A stretch of 32,000 bases of DNA, taken from positions 2,010,001 through 2,042,000 of the forward strand of contig NZ_CP060715.1 of NCBI RefSeq assembly GCF_014396165.1, read 5' to 3'. The DNA is from Erysipelothrix inopinata (GTDB lineage: Bacteria; Bacillota_I; Bacilli_A; Erysipelotrichales; Erysipelotrichaceae). Below the pieces are notes generated by a model. That model did no database searches. It saw only the letters and a list, made by a program, of their open reading frames with translations, and was not told where the DNA came from. The first letter of the stretch is position 1. Every line of letters starts with the position of its first letter. Shown here in pieces: positions 1 through 24,499 of the stretch. Position numbers and translations under genes: made by a program.

Positions 1-3000
1 GACTCGTGTCGAATCACCCAGTAGTTCTTTATCTCCAAGTGTAGAGAGTATCTTGGCTTTTGGATCTTGAGTAAACGCGCGAATTACAACTGATTTTGTA
101 TCTTCAAGAAGCCCAACTTCATATTCAGTTACATTCGGATCGAAAGGTTGTTTGAAGATACTTCCCTCTATTTGAATTCCCGAGAGTGCGTTATTCTTAG
201 AACGTTTATACGTTACATTGAATGTGTACGAGGTCTTCGATTTACCATTCTCACTGTGAACTGTAATGACGAATGGTTTTAACACATTCGCTTCTAATGT
301 TATGGGTTCTTCTGTTTCGTAAATAATTGTTGCGTTAGGATCAGTAGCTGCAATTTTCTTGATGAATGACTTATCAAATGTTTGGTTATCATCCGTCAAC
401 TCTAACGTGTAGTCAGTAACGTTAGGATTAAAGTTCTTATCGAGTGTTCCCGATTCAAATTCGATATTTTTTAGTTTCGAGTTATCACCGACTTCACGTT
501 CCACTATAATACGGTACGTTTGCATCGTATAACCGTCTACTGCTCGAACTCTTATTTCATATATATTTTCTTGCGCAGTTTTCAATTCTAGGACGCCTGT
601 TTTCTCAACAGTTGCATGCTTATCAACAAGATCAAAAATCACTTCATCACTCTTCAAGTTTGTTTTTGAGTTTGGAACTTTCAAGTGATACGTGAAGACA
701 TCCTCTTGGAATGGTTCCTGAAGTTTATACCCTTTAACACTGAGATTTGATAGACGCGTTTCGTCAGTCTTAGCACGCCCAATGTTGATTGTATATTCTT
801 TTACATCACCATTTTCAGCCGTTACTTTAATCACACGTACGCTTTCCCCTGTTGGGAGTAATTTTCGTTCATGTCCCGTAATTCTCGCATTACGATCTTC
901 GGTGCTGACATCAAATGATAATGTATTGGTAACACTTTCCGTATTGAGTTGATACGTATCTTCCGTATAAATGAAGTTTGGTGTCAGAGCACCATTGCTT
1001 GGCTTGATGTTTGTAAGAGCATTATTATCTGAAGCAGGACGTGTGAGGTTGATGGTGTAAACACGATCTCGACCCGAATCACTGGTTACCACGACTTCAA
1101 GTTTGTTGTCTCCTACTTTAATTTTTTTCTGGCCACTACCAGATATTGTTGTGGCAAGACTCTTGACTCCTATATCGACACTCTCAGTTCCGATTGGAAC
1201 TGGATTCACAAGTGTATACTCTTGAATTTTAGGATCAAAGGCGGGTTTCATTTGAAGCACATCCCCTTTTAATTTGACACTTAAATCCTGCAAGTAATTC
1301 TCATGAGATCGACTTCTGTTTACAAACACATGGTAAGTTCTCGTGATACCTGTTTTTGAAGTAACGGGAATTTTAATATGTGTTTCCCCATAAGGAATAT
1401 CATAATTACCCAGTCCCTCAACTTTAGATGAAGTTAATGTTGCTTCTCCATCAAGTTTCAAGGTACTTTCTTCAGGTGTTAAATCTACGTTATAAACAAG
1501 TGTTCCCTTGTAAAAGCTTGGTGTCAACTTATTCTTATTCACAGCCAGATACTCTAAATAGTTATTTGCGTAAATTTGACGATAAGCATGAATCGTATAG
1601 GTTTCTTGGAGATCTTTCTCGTTAGAAGTAACCTCGATAGTTATCGTGTTATCCCCTACTTCAAGATTTTGATTTCCAGTAACTTTATAGGTAGCATTGG
1701 GATCTATTTTTTCAATTTCCATTTGTAATGTCGTAACTTCATTATCAACATTGATAAAGTACTCGTTGACATCTGAGCTAAATCCTTCATCAAATGGATA
1801 GTTATCAACTTTTAAGTTTTTGAGTTTTGCAGAATTAATCGGTGCACGATTCACAATAAATGTGAACGTTTTAACCGTTCCATTTTCTGCTGTAACGTTG
1901 ATATTGAATTGATTGCGGCCCACCTTAAGTTCATGAGTACCAATTCCTGTGAGGGTAGCATTTTTATCTTCTAAGATTCCATCAAATTGAATGGTTTCAT
2001 GAGAATAATCCAAGTTTAATTCATAACTTGTTTGATCATTTTTAAAGGTTTCAAATTGGTTTCCATCAACGGACAATTCTTTAAGGTTTGTGTTATCAGA
2101 ACCTTCACGGTTAACAACAACCGTATAGACTTTACTTGTTGAAGCTTCACTTACAACTTCAACATCAATAAAGTTATCGCCTACTTTAAGGGGTACTGTT
2201 TTTGGATAGTTTACCACTGCATCGTCATCTTCTGCTTTCGCTGACACGTTTACAGAGTGAAGTTCAAAGGGTGCCGACGCTTTATATACTGTCTTATTTG
2301 ATACAAAAGTTGGTTCAAAGCGAACACCACTTATTGATAAATGAGAGAGGTTAGCATTTTTTGATGGAACCTTATCTACTGTTATTGTGTAGTCCTTAGT
2401 TGTTTGACGATCTTCTGCAGTCACCCGTACGATTACAACGTTTTTAGTTCCCGTAACAAAATCATGATTTCCTAATACTTCATAAGTTGCCTTTGGATGG
2501 TATGGGGAAGCAGAGACACTCAGTGCTCTTCGATCCGTCTTTCCAGAATAGGTTGAGACGTTTTTATCAAATTGAATTCCCTTATCAAGCAGTCCATTGA
2601 CATAAAGACCTGCTAGAGACGCATCACTTGATGGTTTACGAGTCACTACAATTTGATAATCCATAATAATGTTATTCTTGGCACGGGTTCTAACTTTAAT
2701 TAAGTTTTCTCCCACTTGCAAAGGATAACTTCCTAAGCCTTTGATTTCAGTTTGGCTTGTGATAGCTTCACCACTTACATCTATTTTGGTCACATCATTT
2801 TCTACCGTCGTTCGGTAGAATTGTTGCTTAGAATCGAATTCCGGTTTAAAAGTACCCGAAGAAGTTTTTAAAGACTTCAAACCAATGTTTTCAGATGCCT
2901 TTTCTTGAACTGTTACATTCAAGGCGTAATCTTTATGTGCTGATAAGCCTTCCGAATCAACTCTTACGATGACACGGTTTTTACCTGGGTTAAGGACATT

Positions 3001-5107
3001 ATCAAGTATTTGAATTTTTGACTTAGGATTGACTGGCAATGCTTCTACCGTAAGTTTACTTGTTCCTTGAGGCACCAGTAAGGAATATTCGATAACATCT
3101 GACTTAAACTCACGATGTAATGCTCCTTCATGAACATACAACGTTTTTAAATCCGTATTGCTTGATTGGTCACGAACAACCTCAATAGTGTAGGTTGCTG
3201 GTGTCCCATCTTCAGCACGTGTTTTAATCTCGATGCTATTCGAACCAAGTTTAAGTTCATGCTTTCCATTACCGCTCATTACCGTAGATTGAATCATTGG
3301 TTCTGTTACAAACTCAATCATATCAATCTCATTGTTTACATTGAGTGTGTATTTATAGGTATCAGGATTAAACTCAGGTTCCATTGTACCTTCAGGTTTC
3401 GTCATGATTGATTTCAATCGTGCATCCACATTGGGTTTCATAGTTATATTCACGCTGTACGTTTCAATACGACCACTTTCCGCAGTTGCTAGAATTTCAA
3501 CTCGGTTTACACCCGTTAATAATTCAATCCCTTGGTGCTTAGAAACTTCAGTAAGTGGATGCTTTGTTTCTGTTATAAGATTCAATCGTTCTTCCGTATA
3601 AGGAATTGTGATATTGTACTCCAAAGTTTCCGGATTAAAATCTTCGATTTCAAAGAGATTGGAGGTAATACTTGTAAGTTCATTGTTATCAGAGATTGCT
3701 TTATTGACTGTGAAAACGTATTGATTTACGTTTCCGTGATCAGCAGTAACACGAACATTAATGGTATTCTTTCCGCCTCGAAGTCTGACGGTATTTCCTG
3801 ATGTTGTATACGTTGCTAATTCATTAGCTAACTCAATCTTAAGATCTGGATTAATCACATCATCTGCGACTTCAAATGTTTGTTTTAACACATCTGGATC
3901 GAATGGATCCATTTCTTTACCACCGATAGAGAGAGATTTGATCTTCGCATTTTTGGATTTGCTACGATTGATTTGAATGCGATAACTTCCTTTTGTACCG
4001 TCTTGAGCTTGGGTATTAATGACGAATTGATTGGATCCGACTTCTAATTTTTTAACACCCAGTCCTTCAACTGATGTTGCATCATTATCGACAACTCCCA
4101 CAAGTTCAACTTCATCAATTTCATTCTCGACGTTCACAACATAATCGTTTAATACCTTTTGGTAATTTGGTGATAATGGTAAAGCCTCATCTTTATGAAG
4201 AATTTCAAGAGATTTTAAGAAGACATTCGAACTTTCTTCGCGATATATATTTAATGTGTAGTTTTTTACCAGACCATTTTCTGCAGTTACTTCATAGGTC
4301 AAGGTATTCATACCTAACTCGAGCTCTGCTGTTTCAGCTTTCACATCGATGACTGCATTAGGATCCATGGTTTCAGCATGAATATCTAAGTCAGATACTT
4401 TCTCGAATTCATGCGGAACGGATACATAATATTCAGTAATATCAGGATTAAATTCTAAGTCTCGTTCTGGTTTCAACATCGTCAAGGATTCCAAGTCCGC
4501 ATTTCCAGTCATATCTCGATTGATTTCAAAGGAGTATGCATGGAAGCTCTCGCCATCTTCACTCATTACATCAATATAGTAATGATTATCGTAACCCGGT
4601 TGTAATTCAATGACACCTTCACCAGTCACAATTTGATAGGCATGAGATTTGATAACTGAGAATTCTAACGAACGAATGCGTGATGGAACTGTCATGCTAT
4701 AGACAACACCCTGAGTTCCAAAATCTTGATTAACATCAAATTTCGGTGATAACTTACAGTAATCATCAGATGCTGAGCAAAGTGAAGGAATCAATCCATT
4801 AATAAGAATATTTTCCGGCATTGATTCTTTTGAAGCAGGGCGATTAACTTTAAGTGTATAAGTTTTAACATCACCATTTTCTGCAGTAACCAGTAAATCA
4901 AATTTCTGATTGCCTGCTGGAATATCATATTTACCATTACCAACGATAGTTGCATGAGGATCCATAGCAACACCTTTGATATTTAGCTCTGTCGTATCTG
5001 CATCCAGATCAACAGTATATTCTGTTTGTTTAAGATCAAACTCTGGAGTTAGTTTACCAGAACTGATTTCAATTTTGGATAAGTGATTATCTTCAGATGC
5101 TTTTCTC
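1..5107 (-). other. Array of about 19 cadherin-like beta-sandwich repeats (about 85-90 aa each, divergent at DNA level); the last is cut by the window edge
   Basis: Each unit starts with a motif like (S/D)xNxxL(K/S)xLx(V/I)..G.L.P.F....EY.(V/L) and ends ..G.N.I.I.VTAE(N/D)G..K.YT(I/L).(V/I)NR. Examples are DNHLSKIEISSGKLTPEFDLKQTEYTVDL...TAENGDVKTYTLKVNR and SDNTNLKELSVDGNQFETFKNDQTSYELNL...TAENGTVKTFTFIVNR. Three more units lie at 5861-6671, and two follow each of glycine-rich copies 1-3. Confidence 0.65.
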
Positions 5108-8100
5108 AATGCGGTAATGCGCACATAACCATTTCCTGAGTTTCCTACTGTATAACCACTGTCTTTACCTGGTATTCTTTCAAGCCCAGATTTTAGTTCT
5201 GTTTCACTGAGATAATATTTCTTATCGACAGTATATCCTTTAGGTTTGTGGGAGGTTTCAGTTAATACGTAACCCGATCCACCACCGCCACCGCGATCAT
5301 CATCAGCTGAGTAGTCAGGATTTACACCACCGCCGCCGTACCAGCCACCACCACCGGCGCCACCACGACCATTGTTAGCATAAACACCGCGACCTCCAAG
5401 ACCAAATTCGCCAAAGAGACCGGCTGCTGTTTGGGACCCACCTTGACCACCTGTACCATAATTTTCTGATCGTGATTGACCATAGTTTCCACCACCAGCG
5501 CCACCTTGTTTATTGGATGCCCCGACAGAACCACCACCACCAGCTACAAGAATACGATGGTACAGTGTTTCACCTGCGACACGAATATCAGAGGCACCAC
5601 CACCATAGACACCATTACTTGCTGAGGCACCACCACCGTTATAACCTCGGGATATTGAATTACCAAATCCCCCAACGTTAATTGTGAGCTCCTCACCTTG
5701 CTTTAAGTGAACGAGGCCATTTGCATAGCCACCTTTACCACCTGATTGTGATCCACGGTTTCCCCCTTCAGCACCCCAGGCTTCAAGTTGGTAATTTCCT
5801 GTATACGGTGCAACAAAAGTTTCACTCTTGCCTTTATAGACATACTCATAAATTTTATCTTCACTACCTTCTCCTGAATCCGATCGATTCACATTGATAA
5901 GATAGACTTGTTTTCCTACATGTGGTTCATCAACTGTTACCGTTATTTTATTTTTACCCGGTCTAAGATAACCATTACCACTGACATTAATTGTTGCTTC
6001 ATGGTCATATGCCACAGCATCGACGTTTATGGAAACCATTCCCATAGGAATATCGACATCATAATCAAAGGTTTCTGGTTCAAACTCAAAATTCACATCT
6101 GTGAGTTTCAATGACTTAAGAAGATTTGTATCTTCTATTCTCGGAGTAATCGTATAAGCATCCGATTCATTTCCCGTTTCAGATGTAATTCGAATTGAAA
6201 CCGGTTTGTTGTTTTCAAACTCAACATTTCCGAGTCCTTCAATGACTTGACCTGGTTTGTTTTTTATCCCATCAATAAGCGCATTTCGATCTTGCTTATA
6301 ATCAAGTTCAATTTCATAATTCATTGTTTTCGAGTCAAAATTATTGATTGATTTTTCATTAATACTTAAATTCTTCAGACTTGTATCTTTAGATGCTTCG
6401 CGATAGATATTCAGTTTATAAATACCCATGGTTCCATCTTGAGCAATGACTGGAAGTTCCACAACGGTTGTTCCTGGCATAATTGTAAGGACTTTATCTT
6501 TATCCCATTGCAACTCCGCATTGTGTTCCGTTACGTCACCTTTGATGACTAATTCATACTGTTCGGTGTCCATAACAACATTATATTCATGTTGGTTCGG
6601 ACTGAACGGTTTATCCATGGTTCCAGAACTTAGTTCTAAAGACTTTAATGTTGCGTCAGATGAATACAGGTTAAGGATTGAAATACGGACAGCACCGTCA
6701 CCCTCTTTACCTGTAATTGTAAATCCCTCAGGGCCTGGCATGCTAAAACTTCCAGCACCTAAAACAGTATTCGTCATTTGGTACTTATTAGAAGGTGCAT
6801 AATTTGTTGGTTTGTATGATTTATCGGTGAATGCATAACTTGATCCGCCACCGCCGCCGTCACCATAATAATCACTGCGTTCGTTACGGTTTCCACCACC
6901 GCCATACCAACCACCGCCACCGCCACCGGCAGTTGCACGATATTGATTGCTATCATAGGTTCCGGATCCACCGTTACCAAATGCACCACTACTTGCTCCA
7001 CCACTGCTTTGGGTTGCACCTTTTCCATAGTTTCTACCAGATGCATTTTGTCCTTCGGTGCCACCACCGTCAGCACCGGCACCACTCTTACCTGCCGCAC
7101 CACCACCAGCTGCAACTAGAATACGATTATATACGCTCGTACCACCGACACGAATATCTGTAGCACCACCGCCTCGTTGGCTTCCATTATAACTTGTACC
7201 ACCGCCATTATAACCACTATTAACTTCACCATCACCACCAACAGTGATATTCAAGATTTCGCCCTTCATCAGGTAAATATCACCTGCAGCATAGGCACCT
7301 TTACCACCTTTTACGGACTCAACACGACCTCCTTGAGCACCCCATGTCTCAAGACGATACATTCCCGTGTAAGGAACGGTGAATTGCTCCATTTTTCGAG
7401 TGTATCCAAATGACATATCTCTTTGTCGATGCGCTTTGATGATATATACAGAATCTTCAATACCTTCACGAGAAACAGTCACGCGAATTGTATTATCTCC
7501 AGGTAAGAGTTCTTCATTTGAAGCACCTTCTACCTTTACTTTCGCATCTTCATCATAAGTCGTTGCAATAATATTCAAGCCACCATATACATAGGACTTC
7601 ATGTCATATTCATATTTATTACTATCAAATATCGAAGAGAATGCATTCGTATACTCATCCACCTTCAAATCATAAAGCTGTGTACTTTTTTCTCGCTTGA
7701 AGTTAATTTTATAATCTTGTTTAACTTTTTTATCAGCAGAGATTACAGAAATAGTTTGCGACGTATTATGGTAGTTATTTTTTACTTTTCCAGTTCCAGC
7801 AATAACTTGACCTGAATGACGTCTATCTACAGTGATTTCATCTTCTTGACGATAATCACCTGGAATAACTATCGTATATTCATATTTATTTGGATCAAAT
7901 CCTTCAATAATTTTTCCATTAATACGAATCGCATCAAGATCTGCTGTATTTTCAGTATTTTTACCAAAATACGTAATTCGAGCATATCCATGTTCTGCAT
8001 GACCAATTTCTCGAATTCCATCAATCCCGAAAAAACTTTCGTTTCCTTGCATAAGTTGGGCTTGAGTCATCTCATATTTACTATCAGGAGCATAATTACC

Positions 8101-11100
8101 AGGTCGGTATGATTGCGGAATGGTAATACCATTCTCAACACGTTTTCCAGTTAAAACGTATCCAGAACCACCGCCACCACCGTAGCCATAGCTGTTACTA
8201 CGTTCGTTACGGTTTCCACCTCCGCCGTACCAGCCACCACCGCCACCACCGGCGACAGCATTATAACTATTACTATCATAGGTTCCACCGCCACCAGTTC
8301 CAAAAGATCCATTGAAATATCCATAGCTATTTTGGGTTGCACCTTTACCATATCCAGAGTTTCCAGATGCATCAACACCGTTGGTTCCACCACCGGCACC
8401 ACCATGACCTGTTTGACCTGCAGCACCACCGCCACCAGCAACTAAAATACGATGATATAAACTCGAGCCGCCAATTCGGAAATCAGTTGCCCCGCCACCA
8501 CGTTGGCTTCCATTGTAGCTGGATCCTCCACCATTGTAACCACGACCATTATTATAATCACCAAAGCCTCCAACTGTTACAGTGATTTCTTCACCTTTTT
8601 GTAGTGTGATGTGTCCAGAAGTATAACCGCCTTTACCACCATTGTAAGTACCTAAAGAACCTCCTTGTGCACCCCAGGCTTCTAACTGATATTCACCATC
8701 GTAAGGCGCAATAAATACCTGACTCTTGGATTTAAAATCAAAGTCGATGCTTCTCATCTTAATAACCTTAATTCTATATTCATTGTCTTCAATTCCATCA
8801 TTTGATACATTTACGATAATGATGTCATTATCTTTATCATCTTTTTGATATATAGTTGTAACCACTGCATTTATATCAAACGTTTGATACTCAACTTCAA
8901 CTTTTTCATTCTTAAAACTTTCAACTGTATACTCATTTTTAGTAAATTCAAAAGCTTCATCATCTTTATATACATGATTAGTTACTTTTAAATCATAAAG
9001 TTTGTTGCTTGGTTCACGCTCAAAATTCAAGGTATAAACCTTGTTTGTTTTTCCATCGGCAGAGAAGACCGTTAATTTTTGCACTTGATTATGATATTCA
9101 AATTCTACTTTCCCAGTACCAGCTACTACCTGTCCCGAGTGACGAAGATCTACAGTAATTTCATCCTCTTGACGATGTTCTCCTGGAATCTTAATGGTAT
9201 ATTCATATTTATTTGGGTCGAATCCCTCAATGATTTTTCCATTAATACGAATCGCATCGAGATCTGCTGTATTTTCAGTATTTTTACCAAAATACGTAAT
9301 TCGAGCATATCCATGTTCTGCATGTCCAATTTCTCGCGTTCCATCAATACCGAAGAAACTCTCATTACCGTTTGCAAGATATTCCTTCTTCATTTCATAC
9401 TTAGAATTTGGTACATAATTTCCAGGACGGTATGATTGAGGAATGGTAATGCCATTCTCAACACGTTTTCCAGTTAAAACGTATCCCGATCCACCGCCAC
9501 CACCGTAGCCATAGCTGTTGCTGCGTTCATTACGGTTTCCACCGCCTCCGAACCAGCCACCACCGCCACCACCGGCGACAGAATTATAACTATTACTATC
9601 ATAGGTTCCACCGCCACCAGTTCCAAAAGATCCATTGAAATATCCATAGCTATTTTGGGTTGCACCTTTACCATATCCAGAGTTTCCTGTTGCATCGACA
9701 CCGTTGGTTCCACCACCGGCACCACCATGACCTGTTTGACCAGCCGCACCACCGCCACCGGCTACTAAAATACGATTATAAATACCGGTTCCACCAACGC
9801 GAAAATCTGTAGCACCACCGCCACGTTGGCTTCCATTGTAACTGGATCCACCACCATTGTAACCACGACCATTATTATAATCGCCAAAGCCTCCGACTGT
9901 TACAGTGATTTCTTCACCTTTTTGTAGTGTAATATGTCCAGAAGTATAACCGCCTTTACCACCATTATATGTACCTAAAGAACCTCCTTGCGCTCCCCAT
10001 GCTTCAAGTTTATATTCACCATCATATGGCGCAATAAAGATTTGACTCTTTGATTGGAATTCAAAATCAAGACTTCGATGTTTGGTAACTTCGATTTCAT
10101 ATTCAAAGGGATCTATACCATCCCTTTGGACGCTTAAAGTAATGAGTTCCTTATTGTCGCTTAGTGGTTCGCGTACGACAGAGCCCACAGCATCCTTATC
10201 GAAAGTCATATAGCTTACTGAAACTTCTTCATCCAAAAAGCTATCGACAAAATATTTTTTCACGTTTGGATCGAAAGAAATATTATCTTTGAACGTATGA
10301 TTATCTGCCTTTAGATTGAAAAGTTTGTTGCTAGGTTCTCGTTCAAAATTCAAGGTATAGACCTTGCTCGTTTTTCCATCTGCAGAAAAGACATTAATCT
10401 TTTGAACTAAATTATGGTATTCAAAATTAACTTTGCCTGTTCCGACGATAACCTGATCTACATGACGTCGGTCTACTGTGATTTCATCTTCTTGAGAGTA
10501 TTCTCCAGGGATTTTTATTGTATATTCTAATTGTTTGGGATCAAATCCTTGAATGATATTTCCATTAATTCGAATGCCGTCAATATCCGCCGAATTTTCA
10601 TTATCTTTACCATAGTATGTAATACGCGCATGTCCATGCGATTCATGACCAATTTCACGTACGCCATCGATTCCAAAAAAACTTTCATTTCCATGTGACA
10701 ATTGCGCTTTATTCATTTCATACTTACTCTCTGGAGCATAATTACCAGGTCGGTAAGATGGGGCAATGGTTATACCGTTCTCAACACGGCTTCCAGTTAA
10801 AACATATCCAGAACCACCGCCTCCACCGTAACCATAACTGTTGCTACGCTCATTTCGGTTTCCACCACCGCCATACCAGCCACCACCGCCACCGCCGGCA
10901 ACCGCATTATAGCTATTACTATCATAGGTCCCACCGCCACCAGTTGCGAATCCACCATTAAAATATCCATAACTACTTTGAGTGGCACCCTTTCCATATC
11001 CAGAGTTTCCTGATGCATCGAGTCCCTCTAGTCCACCACCAGCTCCACCATGTCCTGTTTTCCCCGCAGCACCACCACCGCCGGCAACTAAGATACGGTT

Positions 11101-11519
11101 ATAAATCGAAGTTCCGCCAACACGAAAATCCGTGGCACCACCACCACGTTGACTTCCATTATAGCTAGAACCACCACCATTGTAGCCGCGACCACCATTG
11201 TAGTCGCCATCACCACCGACAGTAATCGTCAGTTCTTCACCTTTCTTAAGGTAGATTTCTCCGGAAGCAAAGCCCCCTTTACCTCCGCGATAATCGCCCA
11301 AGGATCCTCCTTGAGCACCCCAAGACTCTAGTAGATACAGTCCGTCCTTTTCAACATTGAAAGTGACAGGTTTACCTGTATACTCGAAGTTATGAACTTC
11401 GGGTTGTTCACTCGACACTTTTGTTTTCGTATCATTCGCAAAAATCTGATACGACGACAAAAACACTACAAAAAAGAGTAGTCCGAGCCCCCAGCACGAG
11501 AAACTTTTTTAATATTCAT
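1..11519 (-). CDS. Giant secreted/surface repeat protein. It holds five ALK/LTK-like glycine-rich domains and about 28 cadherin-like beta-sandwich repeats. It is 3'-partial (continues beyond position 1). The 5' end is frame-disrupted: ATG at 11517-11519, body frame open from 11508.
   Basis: I split the + strand into triplets from position 1. No tta/cta/tca (reverse-complement stops) occurs until tta at 11509-11511. I read the whole frame through and re-verified it triplet by triplet at 1-540, 4681-4860, 5101-5280, 7021-7140, 7381-7500, 8701-8820, 10081-10140 and 11401-11511. All minus-strand track ORFs in this region are in another frame, as expected for one ORF with no in-window stop. The translation begins ..SFSCWGLGLLFFVVFLSSYQIFANDTKTKVSSEQPEVHNFEYTGKPVTFNVEKDGLYLLESWGAQGGSLGDYRGGKGGFASGEIYLKKGEELTITVGG.. 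and ends at the window edge in a cadherin-like repeat. An ATG with an upstream AAGAGGGG Shine-Dalgarno sequence sits at 11517-11519 but is offset by one base from the body frame. Confidence 0.85.
5108..5860 (-). other. Glycine-rich domain copy 5 (most diverged)
   Basis: The translation reads YEYVYKGKSETFVAPYTGNYQLEAWGAEGGNRGSQSGGKGGYANGLVHLKQGEELTINVGG..GYNGGGASASNGVYGGGASDIRVAGETLYHRILVAGGGGSVG..GRGGAGGGGWYGGGGVNPDYSADDDRGGGGGSGYVL..GNSGNGYVRITAL. Confidence 0.65.
6672..7420 (-). other. Glycine-rich domain copy 4 (diverged)
   Basis: The translation reads FGYTRKMEQFTVPYTGMYRLETWGAQGGRVESVKGGKGAYAAGDIYLMKGEILNITVGG..QRGGGATDIRVGGTSVYNRILVAAGGGAAGKSGAGADGGG..TAGGGGGGWYGGGGNRNERS..GDGGGGGSSYAF..GKEGDGAVRISIL. 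The reverse complement of 7021-7140 was verified codon by codon. Confidence 0.7.
7962..8750 (-). other. Glycine-rich domain copy 3
   Basis: The translation reads FDFKSKSQVFIAPYDGEYQLEAWGAQGGSLGTYNGGKGGYTSGHITLQKGEEITVTVGG..QRGGGATDFRIGGSSLYHRILVAGGGGAAG..GGGGGGWYGGGGNRNERS..GHAEHGYARITYFG. It is nearly identical to copy 2. Confidence 0.7.
9285..10075 (-). other. Glycine-rich domain copy 2
   Basis: The translation reads FEFQSKSQIFIAPYDGEYKLEAWGAQGGSLGTYNGGKGGYTSGHITLQKGEEITVTVGG..QRGGGATDFRVGGTGIYNRILVAGGGGAAGQTGHGGAGGG..GGGGGGWFGGGGNRNERS..GHAEHGYARITYFG. Confidence 0.7.
10610..11400 (-). other. Glycine-rich domain copy 1 (ALK/LTK GRD-like, PF12810-like)
   Basis: The translation reads FEYTGKPVTFNVEKDGLYLLESWGAQGGS..GGKGGFASGEIYLKKGEELTITVGG..GYNGGGSSYNGSQRGGGATDFRVGGTSIYNRILVAGGGGAAG..AVAGGGGGGWYGGGGNRNERS..YGGGGGSGYVL..GHESHGHARITYYG. 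Confidence 0.7.
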
Positions 11520-11550
11520 TTTAGTAAATCTTCCCCTCTTAAGCACAATT

Positions 11551-11556
11551 ATTATA
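11551..11556 (-). promoter_or_regulatory. Candidate -10 box (TATAAT) for the giant gene; no convincing -35
   Basis: The minus-strand sequence reads ..ACAGCTTATAATAATTGTGCTTAAGAGGGGAAGATTTACTAAAATG. It has a perfect TATAAT, a poor -35 (ATAAGG) and an AT-rich upstream region. It lies downstream of the two rpsO terminators. Confidence 0.35.
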
Positions 11557-11644: not shown

Positions 11645-11671
11645 AAAAAAGAGTAGTAAAATATACTACTC
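11645..11671 (-). terminator. Rho-independent terminator (second of two after rpsO)
   Basis: On the minus strand, GAGTAGTA-TATTT-TACTACTC forms an 8-bp stem followed by TTTTTTG. Confidence 0.7.
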
Positions 11672-11689
11672 CTTGATCTCTGAGCGAAC

Positions 11690-11712
11690 AAAAAAAGGAG
11701 CCGAAGCTCCTT
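11690..11712 (-). terminator. Rho-independent terminator immediately after rpsO
   Basis: On the minus strand, AAGGAGC-TTCG-GCTCCTT is followed by TTTTTTTG, 8 nt past the rpsO stop. Confidence 0.8.
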
Positions 11713-11719
11713 AGTAAGA

Positions 11720-11986
11720 TTATTTTCTTAATCCTAGTTTTGTGATTAATTCACGGTAACGGTTGATGTCTTCGTTACGTAAGTAAGTTAATAGGTTACG
11801 ACGACGTCCAACTTTTTTAAGAAGTCCACGGTTTGAATGGTGGTCTTTCTTGTGTACTTTCATATGTTCTGTTAACATATTGATTTCTGCTGTAAGAACT
11901 GCTACTTGAACTTCTACTGAACCAGTATCGTTTTCTGTACGAGCATATTCTTTCATGATTGCTTGTTTTTCATTTTTAGATAACAT
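11720..11986 (-). CDS. rpsO: 30S ribosomal protein S15
   Basis: This is an 88-aa track ORF ([56 protein letters not shown]..). It has the typical S15 sequence and an AGGAGG Shine-Dalgarno sequence upstream. Confidence 0.95.
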
Positions 11987-12141: not shown

Positions 12142-12597
12142 TTAATATTCAAACACAAATGATTGATTTTGAACAGATTGGAGTATGGGTTCAAGATAAG
12201 CTTTTAAATCATCTGTATCGATTTCAAAGAAGTCTTCTGTTTTACTTCCTTTTTGGTATAAATATAAGTAAGATTCATCATCAGAAGCAACAATAAGTTT
12301 TACGACATATTCTTCATTTAGTTTATCACTGCAAAGATTGTATACTTTCTCATTATCTGTATTTTCAATCCTGATGATTGGTTTTGCATGTTTAACTAAA
12401 TCTTCAAAAGAAACTTTGTCTGCAAGTGTCAATTTTACAGAAACTCCTGGGTTCTCAGGATACGTCTCTGTAAGATAAACATCTTCATAGTGAGCAAGTG
12501 ATGTTATCTGGACATATGTCTTCATCGTGTTAGCAGAACATCCCACCAACATCATTAATAATACTAATAATACGCCAATCCTACGCGTCTGATTCAT
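12142..12597 (-). CDS. Lipoprotein of unknown function
   Basis: The signal peptide MNQTRRIGVLLVLLMMLVGC carries a lipobox (L-V-G-C). I recognise no family. Confidence 0.7.
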   Translation of the reverse strand: MNQTRRIGVLLVLLMMLVGCSANTMKTYVQITSLAHYEDVYLTETYPENPGVSVKLTLADKVSFEDLVKHAKPIIRIENTDNEKVYNLCSDKLNEEYVVKLIVASDDESYLYLYQKGSKTEDFFEIDTDDLKAYLEPILQSVQNQSFVFEY

Positions 12598-18721: not shown

Positions 18722-18747
18722 CACTGAATTCATTCAGTGTTTTTTTT
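18721..18747 (+). terminator. Rho-independent terminator of rpsT (overlaps the holA stop)
   Basis: ACACTGAA-TTCA-TTCAGTGT is followed by TTTTTTT. Confidence 0.8.
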
Positions 18748-23136: not shown

Positions 23137-24228
23137 CTAGTATCCTAGTAATTCTTTTCGAACAGCTTCGTGTTCTTCATAAGTAACTTGGTAATATACT
23201 TTACCATCTTTTACATTATTGACATCTGCAATAAAGAATATATAATCGCTGGGCGTATAGTTCAGTACAGCAGTAATTGCCTTTAATGAAGGATTTAGGA
23301 TTGGCCCTGGAGGCAACCCTTCATAAACATAAGTGTTATAAACTGTATCATGTTGGTTATTTTTAGCGCTCTCACACTCTGTCCATGAATCAAATTCATA
23401 GAGTGAATAACAAACAGTCACACTTGATTGAAGTTTCATATTTTGTTTCAAACGATTTAAGAATACTCCCGCAACAAGTTTCATATCTTCGTCAGTCGAT
23501 GCTTCATATTCTACGATTGACGCTAAAGTCATGATTTCTTCTTGAGACATATCGAGTTTCTTTAAATCATTTTTATATTGTTGGAATTTATCATTTCCAT
23601 TCTTGATAAGTTCGCGCGTGATATCTTCTTCACTTGCATCCTTTTTAAGGTTGTAAGTATCAGGATAGAGATAACCTTCAAGTTTCACTCTCACATTATC
23701 AAGTTTTAGAACGGATGCTGGAATGACTTCATAGTCTTTCATGAGAGACTCAATGAATTCATTGCTATTCCACAGTTCTAAAAATCTTTCAGCCTTAGTA
23801 TTTGTTACTGCAGCAATTTCTTTCGCAATATCTTTCGCCCAGATTCCCTCTACGAGAGTGACTGTAACATTGTTCGTAGTATCTTTTGAAAAATCAGGAT
23901 CAGCAAGTCGTGTCAGAATTTCTTTAGAATTTAAAGATTTATCCAATTCAAACGTTCCGTGGAAAGTTTGGTTTTTCTTACTGATTTTTGATTCAATTTT
24001 TGTAAAGAATGCCGAACGAATGATCCCCTCTGATTCAAGACGATCTAAGGTTGTTTGGAATGACTCCCCTTGTTTCACTTCAAAAAGAACAGTTTCGCTG
24101 TTCTTTGTAACACCTTGGGTATTAACTTTGTAAAGTGCGAAAAAAGAGCCAAGTGCTATAACAAGAGCAACAACAATTCCAACTAAAACACGTTTAGTGG
24201 TTGTGGTCATGGTTGCAGTTTTCGTCAT
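23137..24228 (-). CDS. mltG: Endolytic murein transglycosylase MltG (YceG-like)
   Basis: The protein has an N-terminal transmembrane segment, then the YceG motifs ..LASIVEYEA.., ..AGVFLNRL.., ..LQSSVTVCY.., ..YNTYVYEGLPPGPILNPS... The track ORF starts at a TTG (24276) inside the upstream gene. The ATG at 24228 (MTKTATM..) is the preferred start. Confidence 0.85.
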   Translation of the reverse strand: MTKTATMTTTTKRVLVGIVVALVIALGSFFALYKVNTQGVTKNSETVLFEVKQGESFQTTLDRLESEGIIRSAFFTKIESKISKKNQTFHGTFELDKSLNSKEILTRLADPDFSKDTTNNVTVTLVEGIWAKDIAKEIAAVTNTKAERFLELWNSNEFIESLMKDYEVIPASVLKLDNVRVKLEGYLYPDTYNLKKDASEEDITRELIKNGNDKFQQYKNDLKKLDMSQEEIMTLASIVEYEASTDEDMKLVAGVFLNRLKQNMKLQSSVTVCYSLYEFDSWTECESAKNNQHDTVYNTYVYEGLPPGPILNPSLKAITAVLNYTPSDYIFFIADVNNVKDGKVYYQVTYEEHEAVRKELLGY

Positions 24229-24499
24229 GAACGTGTTCTTCAGCTTGAATGATGAATGTATTGAATACTTCTTCAATCATTGCCCATTCTTTTTCTTCAG
24301 TAACATTGTTCAATTCGCCTTCCTCAGTGTAAGATGATACAAATACTTCACCTGTTTCATCTGCTGGGTCGACATAAAGGACATAACTCTTATTGTATTC
24401 ATCATCGTTAAATGTGAATAGAATTTCCATTTCTTTTTCTGATCCATCGTCGTCAATAACTACGATTGTTTTTTCATCTACTGATTTATTTTCTTCCAT
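24194..24499 (-). CDS. DUF1292 / UPF0473 family protein (YrzB-like)
   Basis: This is an acidic 101-aa protein (..IVVIDDDGSEKEMEILFTF..YVLYVDPAD..). It sits between ruvX and mltG as in Bacillus. Confidence 0.75.
   Translation of the reverse strand: MEENKSVDEKTIVVIDDDGSEKEMEILFTFNDDEYNKSYVLYVDPADETGEVFVSSYTEEGELNNVTEEKEWAMIEEVFNTFIIQAEEHVHDENCNHDHNH

Follow-up and report, generated by a model that had tools for sequence, protein, structure and literature searches.

A 32,000-nt stretch of the Erysipelothrix inopinata genome (GCF_014396165.1, NZ_CP060715.1, positions 2,010,001–2,042,000, forward strand), called the window below, carries on its minus strand a giant gene located directly after rpsO. 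Two features define the locus:

1..11508, minus strand: stop-free frame of 3,836 codons, corresponding to about residues 11–3843 of a predicted protein of ~5,500 amino acids (aa); the 3′ end lies past the window edge
11720..11986, minus strand: rpsO (ribosomal protein S15), found upstream of the giant gene in all related loci

Open reading frame of the giant gene

When codons are taken at + positions 3n+1..3n+3, the minus-strand frame contains no stop in 1–11508, and its first in-frame stop is TAA at 11511..11509. A preliminary description of the window had claimed a stop-free frame of at least 3,836 codons here and had named an in-frame tta, cta or tca triplet as the thing that would split it; none is present in 1–11508, and the frame stands. 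The same description held that such a frame is not expected by chance, with which our figures agree. Based on base composition, the probability of no stop in 3,836 codons is ~1e-124, and the longest open run in 200 shuffles of the region was 139 codons. The remaining five frames contain 141–489 stops each over this region, and the runner-up stop-free stretch anywhere in the 32-kb window is 2,631 nt. The GC content, previously put at about 36%, was measured as 39.5% for positions 1–11519.

The open reading frame (ORF) track of the window shows only fragments of up to 118 aa in this region. The giant gene is absent from the track because its frame runs past the window edge and the track leaves out ORFs that run off the source; the edge alone had been suggested as the cause, and correctly so. 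The short fragments are really rich in His (23–28%), Val (26–29%) or Thr (23–32%), as had been noticed. They arise where GGT-rich glycine tracts are read off frame or antisense, GTG being translated as Val, ACC as Thr and CAC as His. An edge-truncated giant ORF is by itself ordinary. For annotation, it serves as a reminder that one such gene may fill a third of a window in which no ORF is apparent.

Domain architecture

Two Pfam families account for the long frame. PF12810 (ALK_LTK_GRD) was found in five stretches with 595.3 bits (cut-off 24.5), and PF12733 (cadherin-like beta sandwich) was found in repeated units of ~83 aa with 380.3 bits (cut-off 24.2). The cadherin-like units were mapped using a locally built repeat hidden Markov model (HMM), which placed 28 of them in the window part of the gene. 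Abbreviating the glycine-rich domains as GRD and the cadherin-like repeats as Cad, the order is signal peptide, [GRD-Cad-Cad]x3, GRD-Cadx3, GRD, Cadx19. The domains are distributed as follows, all residue numbers being those of the long frame:

10585..11400, minus strand: GRD1, aa 37–308 (Pfam; AlphaFold2 (AF2) and Foldseek)
10078..10584, minus strand: cadherin-like repeats 1–2, linker of module 1 (local HMM)
9262..10077, minus strand: GRD2, aa 478–749 (Pfam)
8755..9261, minus strand: cadherin-like repeats 3–4, module 2 (local HMM)
7939..8754, minus strand: GRD3, aa 919–1190, 92% identical to GRD2 (Pfam)
7423..7938, minus strand: cadherin-like repeats 5–6, module 3 (local HMM)
6646..7422, minus strand: GRD4, aa 1363–1621
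5881..6648, minus strand: cadherin-like repeats 7–9, interval between GRD4 and GRD5 (local HMM)
5080..5856, minus strand: GRD5, aa 1885–2143
1..5082, minus strand: cadherin-like repeats 10–28, the stalk, the last repeat being cut by the window edge (local HMM)

GRDs and cadherin-like repeats tile the frame end to end, and the lone unassigned piece is a 24-aa linker at aa 2225–2248. The three N-terminal modules of 441 aa align with 68–79% nucleotide identity; Tandem Repeats Finder returned nothing for them, the 1,323-nt period being above its limit. Pairwise identity among the five GRDs is 47–92%. The stalk repeats are old, their median pairwise identity being 21.5%. The classical cadherin Ca2+ motifs DxNDN, DRE and LDRE were not found in the 3,836 aa, so the giant is not a true cadherin.

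The long frame is thus a real, selected, giant protein-coding gene, and the earlier view of a frame under selection with coherent domains throughout is supported by both Pfam scores. The probability that the region is non-coding, degraded, recoded or a remnant of a prophage tail fibre is practically nil. Such a reading could appeal to an ORF track with short fragments only and to GRD matches in four families of phage proteins, but it is refuted by the length of the open frame, given its chance probability, by the domains that tile the whole of it and by the position after rpsO, which ten assemblies share and near which no phage genes lie.

Orthologs and full length of the gene

The giant gene lies immediately downstream of rpsO on every contig with an identical rpsO, the named records being metagenome-assembled genomes (MAGs) of Erysipelothrix sp. 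Ten syntenic loci were found after rpsO. Five of them (L007–L011) share 97–98% nucleotide identity with the window and thus belong to the same species; in these assemblies the giant gene is truncated at contig ends. An uninterrupted ortholog of 5,501 aa, P0284 (MEG0415802.1, 'glycine-rich protein' at NCBI), was found in an Erysipelothrix MAG. Window residues 7–3836 are collinear with P0284 residues 11–3843 at 85.6% identity and with 3 gap positions, and P0284 contains 5 GRDs and 43 cadherin-like repeats. P0284 and the other MAG orthologs (P0138, P0285 and P0286, each named 'cadherin-like beta sandwich domain-containing protein') occupy the same post-rpsO locus and have the same domain order; the window comes from another species-level lineage (85% nucleotide identity). 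In relatives the gene continues for ~1,660 codons past the position of the window edge. Based on this comparison, the window probably holds the 5′ ~70% of a gene for a Sec-secreted modular surface protein of ~5,500 aa and ~599 kDa.

Start codon, signal peptide and G-tract

The following features were located at the 5′ end of the giant gene:

11648..11712, minus strand: two terminator-like hairpins after rpsO
11533..11540, minus strand: Shine-Dalgarno sequence AAGAGGGG, which precedes the ATG by 13 nt and is identical in relatives
11488..11519, minus strand: native start ATG (11519..11517) and codons MNIKKVSRAG(G), in a frame one base off the long ORF
11488..11492, minus strand: site of the frameshift, a G5 run (C5 on the + strand) that is G6 in all ten syntenic relatives
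11437..11519, minus strand: signal-peptide coding region with the G restored, MNIKKVSRAGGLGLLFFVVFLSSYQIFA with predicted cleavage before ND (compare the N-termini of P0001 and P0284)

The ATG at 11519 is the sole ATG at this end of the gene that is preceded by a Shine-Dalgarno sequence. As written, its frame runs into TAG at 11468..11466 after 17 codons. The interval 1–11519 had been described as one continuous frame. This holds for 1–11508, whereas the native ATG and the first 10–11 codons lie in another frame; position 11519, given as the end of the frame, is the A of this ATG, which is outside the long frame by a one-base offset and upstream of the stop at 11509–11511.

The N-terminus of the closest homolog, P0001, is MNIKKVSRAGG followed by LGLLFFVVFLSS, that is, the ATG frame of the window and then the long frame. 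In the DNA alignment the relative has GCT-GGGGGG-CTC, whereas the window has GCT-GGGGG-CTC (11492–11488). All ten independent syntenic loci contain G6 with the ATG in frame, and G5 occurs in the window only. The tract falls at codons 10–11, and the reading frame switches between G5 and G6. In the window sequence, the start is thus out of frame through one missing G in the G6 run. Restoring the G results in a typical Sec signal peptide, whose cleavage site was placed by eye.

Three other explanations of the offset were considered. A frameshift in the A6 run at 11510–11505, where A7 would give a neat signal peptide, was rejected, as the run is A6 in the relatives too and the difference lies in the G-run. 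Programmed frameshifting was considered unlikely, T-GGG-GGC not being a slippery X-XXY-YYZ heptamer. Reinitiation at the in-frame GTG 11466 or TTG 11460 was also considered unlikely, since these codons have no Shine-Dalgarno sequence and their use would remove the n-region of the signal peptide.

The terminator-like hairpins after rpsO suggest that the giant gene is transcribed as a unit of its own, and a perfect TATAAT is present upstream of it at 11556..11551 (minus strand). A single homopolymer base can conceal the true start of a giant gene in this way, and NCBI-style pipelines would probably flag such a gene as a pseudogene.

Origin of the G5 allele

Compared with L007–L011, the window has three private indels, all of them homopolymer length changes: A8 vs A7 just past the holA stop (minus strand, window ~18740–18747), A6 vs A7 just past the hemW stop (minus strand, window ~13702) and G5 vs G6 inside the giant gene. 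The five loci differ from each other by 1.2–2.1%, which equals their divergence from the window, and have no indels among themselves. Assuming equal rates in all lineages, the probability that all three indels fall on one given lineage is ~0.005–0.03. Confinement of private indels to the window lineage is a signature of assembly error, and we consider it slightly likelier that G5 is a homopolymer miscall in this assembly than that it is a real OFF or pseudogene allele.

The second explanation, somewhat less favoured by us but a serious contender, is that G5 is real and the gene is OFF or recently inactivated. It would then be either a gene for a costly surface protein that undergoes phase variation by strand slippage or a newly formed pseudogene, and the recency of the mutation would be the sole reason why 11.5 kb are still open. 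It fits this explanation that the frameshift falls at codon 11, that the affected tract is the region's longest run of G/C, and that no second gene in the window is frameshifted. Two findings weigh against a miscall. Firstly, two of the three private indels are intergenic though 23 of the 28 long homopolymers in the region compared are coding (p ~0.08 under uniform error); real mutations that have passed through purifying selection should be distributed in this way. Secondly, the giant gene is independently disrupted, at codon 1707, in L005 (Logan SRR11123321, 93.8% identical). Fragmentation of the homolog in the complete genome of Erysipelothrix sp. D19-032 can be added on the same side. On the other hand, a real G5 agrees poorly with a tract length that is invariant (G6) in all ten relatives, G6 is short for a contingency tract, and all three private homopolymer indels are on the window lineage while none is on the five equally divergent ones.

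As for the two disrupted relatives, the change in L005 (15521–15700, ~window 6400) consists of a 1-nt deletion and nearby substitutions in a non-homopolymer context. It produces KLIIY* and leaves the giant gene split in two, with 1,707 aa encoded by one part and 3,767 aa by the other. Either a genuine inactivation or an artefact of assembly could explain it. In D19-032 (L013; CP092171.1, 1964350–1985105; complete genome of 2.25 Mb), the giant and cohesin-partner genes are spread over ~35 small gene calls, with frameshifts and stops even within conserved domains, which suggests an error-rich long-read assembly or extensive decay.

C-terminus and putative partner genes in relatives

In relatives, the giant ends with a Big_2 domain (48 bits) and a type I dockerin (PF00404). 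The Dockerin_1 match in L002 scores 32.2 bits (cut-off 22.9) and includes the canonical Ca2+ loops DLNGDGEVDVLD and DVNEDTEVDVLD. A C-terminal LPXTG or S-layer-homology (SLH) anchor had been guessed from the window, which relatives do not bear out: no [LN]PxTG-type motif was found in the window ORF or the C-terminal 2,105 aa of L002, and neither SLH nor Gram_pos_anchor gave a Pfam match in the window ORF or in the relatives' C-termini.

Two putative partner genes follow the giant gene in L014. The first one, encoding P2 (2,453 aa), overlaps the giant gene by 11 nt, its start codon being just within the 3′ end of the latter. P2 has a signal peptide and an N-terminal cohesin (PF00963, 27.5–28.2 bits vs a cut-off of 24.1; PDB matches 4DH2 and 1AOH). 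These are followed by at least 11 cadherin-like repeats, and the protein ends in a dockerin (32.6 bits). The second one encodes P3 (557 aa), which has a signal sequence and an N-terminal domain. Three cadherin-like repeats come next, and a linker rich in Pro, Lys and Glu leads to a C-terminal transmembrane (TM) helix followed by TRKKPK. The matches of the N-terminal domain of P3 are weak (E 0.005–0.04) and exclusively to ScaB cohesin structures. Erysipelothrix sp. D19-032 retains the junction between dockerin and cohesin (51% identity, E 2e-70). A search of the protein database and a JGI metagenome scan for the cohesin partner returned nothing. No catalytic, glycoside hydrolase or carbohydrate-binding module (CBM) Pfam domains were found in the giant, P2, P3 or P4.

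Based on these results, we suggest the following assembly on the cell surface. P3 would be held in the membrane by its C-terminal helix, and its cohesin-like domain would bind the dockerin of P2. The N-terminal cohesin of P2 would in turn accept the C-terminal dockerin of the giant, so that the putative chain is membrane-P3(Coh)::(Doc)P2(Coh)::(Doc)giant. The cadherin-like repeats may form an extended stalk, and with the dockerin end anchored through the chain, the five GRDs would sit at the cell-distal tip. The gene order and domain content thus suggest a membrane-tethered cohesin-dockerin chain displaying GRDs.

Several points weigh against this chain. The C-terminus and both partner genes lie past the edge of the window and are predicted from a relative with 85% nucleotide identity. 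The proposed P3 cohesin has no Pfam call and no BLASTP alignment to the P2 cohesin, and in the distant lineage L015 the N-terminal domains of the partners gave no cohesin match.

After the 557-aa anchor gene, L014 also carries (35560–36506) genes for two small proteins with an N-terminal TM helix (154 aa and at least 87 aa) and no family assignment. They might belong to the same surface system.

Fold of the glycine-rich domains

A single-sequence PDB search with GRD1 gave no match, and a profile was needed: the GRD profile matches PDB 7LIR, the GRD of the C. elegans ALK homolog (E 0.002). The AF2 model of GRD1 has a pTM (predicted template modelling score) of 0.84. In a Foldseek search with this model, the top 21 PDB matches were all ALK/LTK GRDs (E 2e-8 to 8e-5), and the next match had E 0.35. 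Weighing against this assignment, the Foldseek TM-scores are only 0.40–0.44. The assignment of the GRDs to the ALK/LTK type holds at the fold level.

The likeness to the TG domain of ALK/LTK (PF12810; 7NX1, 7LS0, 7LIR) consists of the Pfam score, the conserved poly-Gly motifs and the fold search result. The giant differs in having five tandem GRD copies in a secreted bacterial protein, with no kinase, EGF-like or MAM/LDLa context, and its GRD shares only 15–22% sequence identity with the ALK/LTK domains. To our knowledge, the ALKAL cytokines have no bacterial counterpart, and a homolog is not expected in bacteria. In structurally solved systems, the combined TNF-like and glycine-rich fold serves recognition; in ALK/LTK it binds the ALKAL ligands (PDB entries). 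A second case is the tail-fibre tip protein gp24 of phage Pam3, whose receptor-binding TNF-like and glycine-rich domain was related by its authors to 7LIR (PMC9608196). Like the tips of phage tail fibres (Pam3 gp24, S16 gp38), the giant is predicted to carry a glycine-rich lattice for recognition at the distal end of a long fibre. In contrast to them, it is encoded in a chromosomal housekeeping context and not in a prophage, and its GRDs stand in tandem on one chain, whereas the phage tip belongs to a trimeric fibre.

In PHROG, the GRD of the window (5080–11400) has matches to phrog_7388, 1589, 5811 and 18810, four families with no function assigned, at E values down to 1e-35. Going by these matches, the GRD fold is common in phage genomes. 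A tblastn search of the GRD against deposited phage genomes gave no match, probably owing to low-complexity masking.

Proposed function

We regard as probable the overall explanation of a giant surface protein that is attached through a chain and carries GRDs at its tip. The GRDs would be multivalent recognition or adhesion modules for some ligand; this function is probable by analogy, because the same fold binds a ligand in ALK/LTK and a receptor at the phage tail-fibre tip. A more specific version is possible, and we propose it tentatively: the giant may be the distal element of an undescribed non-enzymatic three-tier cohesin-dockerin fibre with five ALK/LTK-type GRDs at the tip, the expression of which is maybe switchable at the 5′ G-tract. 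At an estimated ~4 nm per domain, such a fibre of ~60–70 beta-sandwich domains would be a few hundred nm long if extended.

It is unlikely that the giant is instead a structural or matrix component, such as an S-layer-like coat, a biofilm fibre or a spacer, in which the GRDs serve self-association or rigidity. This role would suit a protein whose mass is dominated by the repeat stalk (43 repeats in the ortholog) and whose GRDs have no known ligand, and polyglycine lattices are rigid structural elements (PMC9608196). However, all solved examples of the TNF-like plus glycine-rich fold are recognition modules, the GRDs are at the end opposite to the dockerin anchor, and the divergence of the five copies (47–92% identity) suggests varied specificities.

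Still less probable, to the point that we give it little weight, is a cellulosome-like complex for polysaccharide degradation, in which cohesin and dockerin modules recruit enzymes. Both kinds of module are present in relatives, and PF12733, for which carbohydrate binding has been proposed, counts in favour of this possibility. It is difficult to reconcile with the lack of glycoside hydrolase, CBM and catalytic domains in the four proteins named above and with a neighbourhood of housekeeping genes.

If the proposed multivalent fibre is correct, it would give a bacterial functional context to the otherwise orphan ALK GRD fold. The cohesin-dockerin chain with its ALK-type tip is the part worth testing, and with the cohesin and putative cohesin proteins encoded next to the giant, the anchoring model lends itself to a direct test with recombinant modules. 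The genus Erysipelothrix includes animal pathogens, and given this, a multivalent surface fibre of 600 kDa is a plausible colonisation factor and antigen.

Protein family and known systems

An exhaustive representative search gave 8,293 matches with E<=1e-3, of which 432 reached E<=1e-30. Representatives 4,000–7,663 aa long that match both GRD and cadherin-like domains number in the dozens. Most other GRD homologs are proteins of 580–840 aa with 2–4 GRDs and nothing else. The giant orthologs were reached through this search and a cluster look-up; a search with a 400-aa C-terminal query did not return them. P0142 (4,902 aa; dockerin of 34.8 bits) and P0146 (4,647 aa) share the architecture of the giant, with GRDx4, Cadx20–26, Big_2 and dockerin. 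They belong to other 50%-identity clusters and are 30–33% identical to the query segment, and one of the two, in an organism of 30% GC, is followed by a dockerin-ended protein of 2,485 aa. Searches of the literature on PF12810, bacterial GRDs and Erysipelothrix giant proteins yielded no study of the family. The giant is therefore an added member of a catalogued, auto-annotated and experimentally uncharacterised family. In this sizeable Firmicute family of proteins of 4,000–7,600 aa, the glycine-rich recognition fold of ALK/LTK occurs together with a stalk of cadherin-like repeats and a terminal dockerin.

In the distant L015 (1–9915, 30% GC), the giant gene is found downstream of Tad/Flp-pilus-like genes (T2SSE ATPase, RcpC-like) and an ISL3 transposase and not beside rpsO.

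Giant repeat adhesins are known from other bacteria, e.g., SiiE of Salmonella (595 kDa) and a Mobiluncus mulieris protein of 7,651 aa with 51 Ig-like domains (PMC6272769, PMC10619420). The Erysipelothrix giant resembles them in being the largest gene of its region, in its diverged beta-sandwich stalk and in putative binding modules at the far end. It differs in that no LPXTG sortase signal or type I secretion system (T1SS) signal is present and dockerin anchoring is predicted, and in that its tip domains are GRDs. The likeness to cellulosomal scaffoldins, e.g., ScaB of A. cellulolyticus, lies in adjacent genes for a dockerin-ended protein, a cohesin+dockerin adaptor and a putative cell-bound cohesin protein. 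Unlike these scaffoldins, the Erysipelothrix system has no enzymes or CBMs, its anchor would be a C-terminal TM helix and not an SLH or sortase signal, and its cargo would be a non-enzymatic fibre of 600 kDa.

Other features of the window

The neighbours of the giant gene in the window are the housekeeping genes rpsO, hemW, lepA, fmt, rpsT, holA, comEC, comEA, greA, udk, mltG, ruvX and alaS. An Rfam scan of window positions 1–32000 at gathering thresholds gave no match, e.g., no T-box or leader upstream of alaS. Directly upstream of rpsO, at 12142–12597 (minus strand), a predicted lipoprotein of 151 aa with an LVGC lipobox and no Pfam match is encoded, and it has this position in every related locus. 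Between ruvX and mltG, at 24194–24499 (minus strand), there is a gene for an acidic protein of 101 aa with the His-rich C-terminus HVHDENCNHDHNH.

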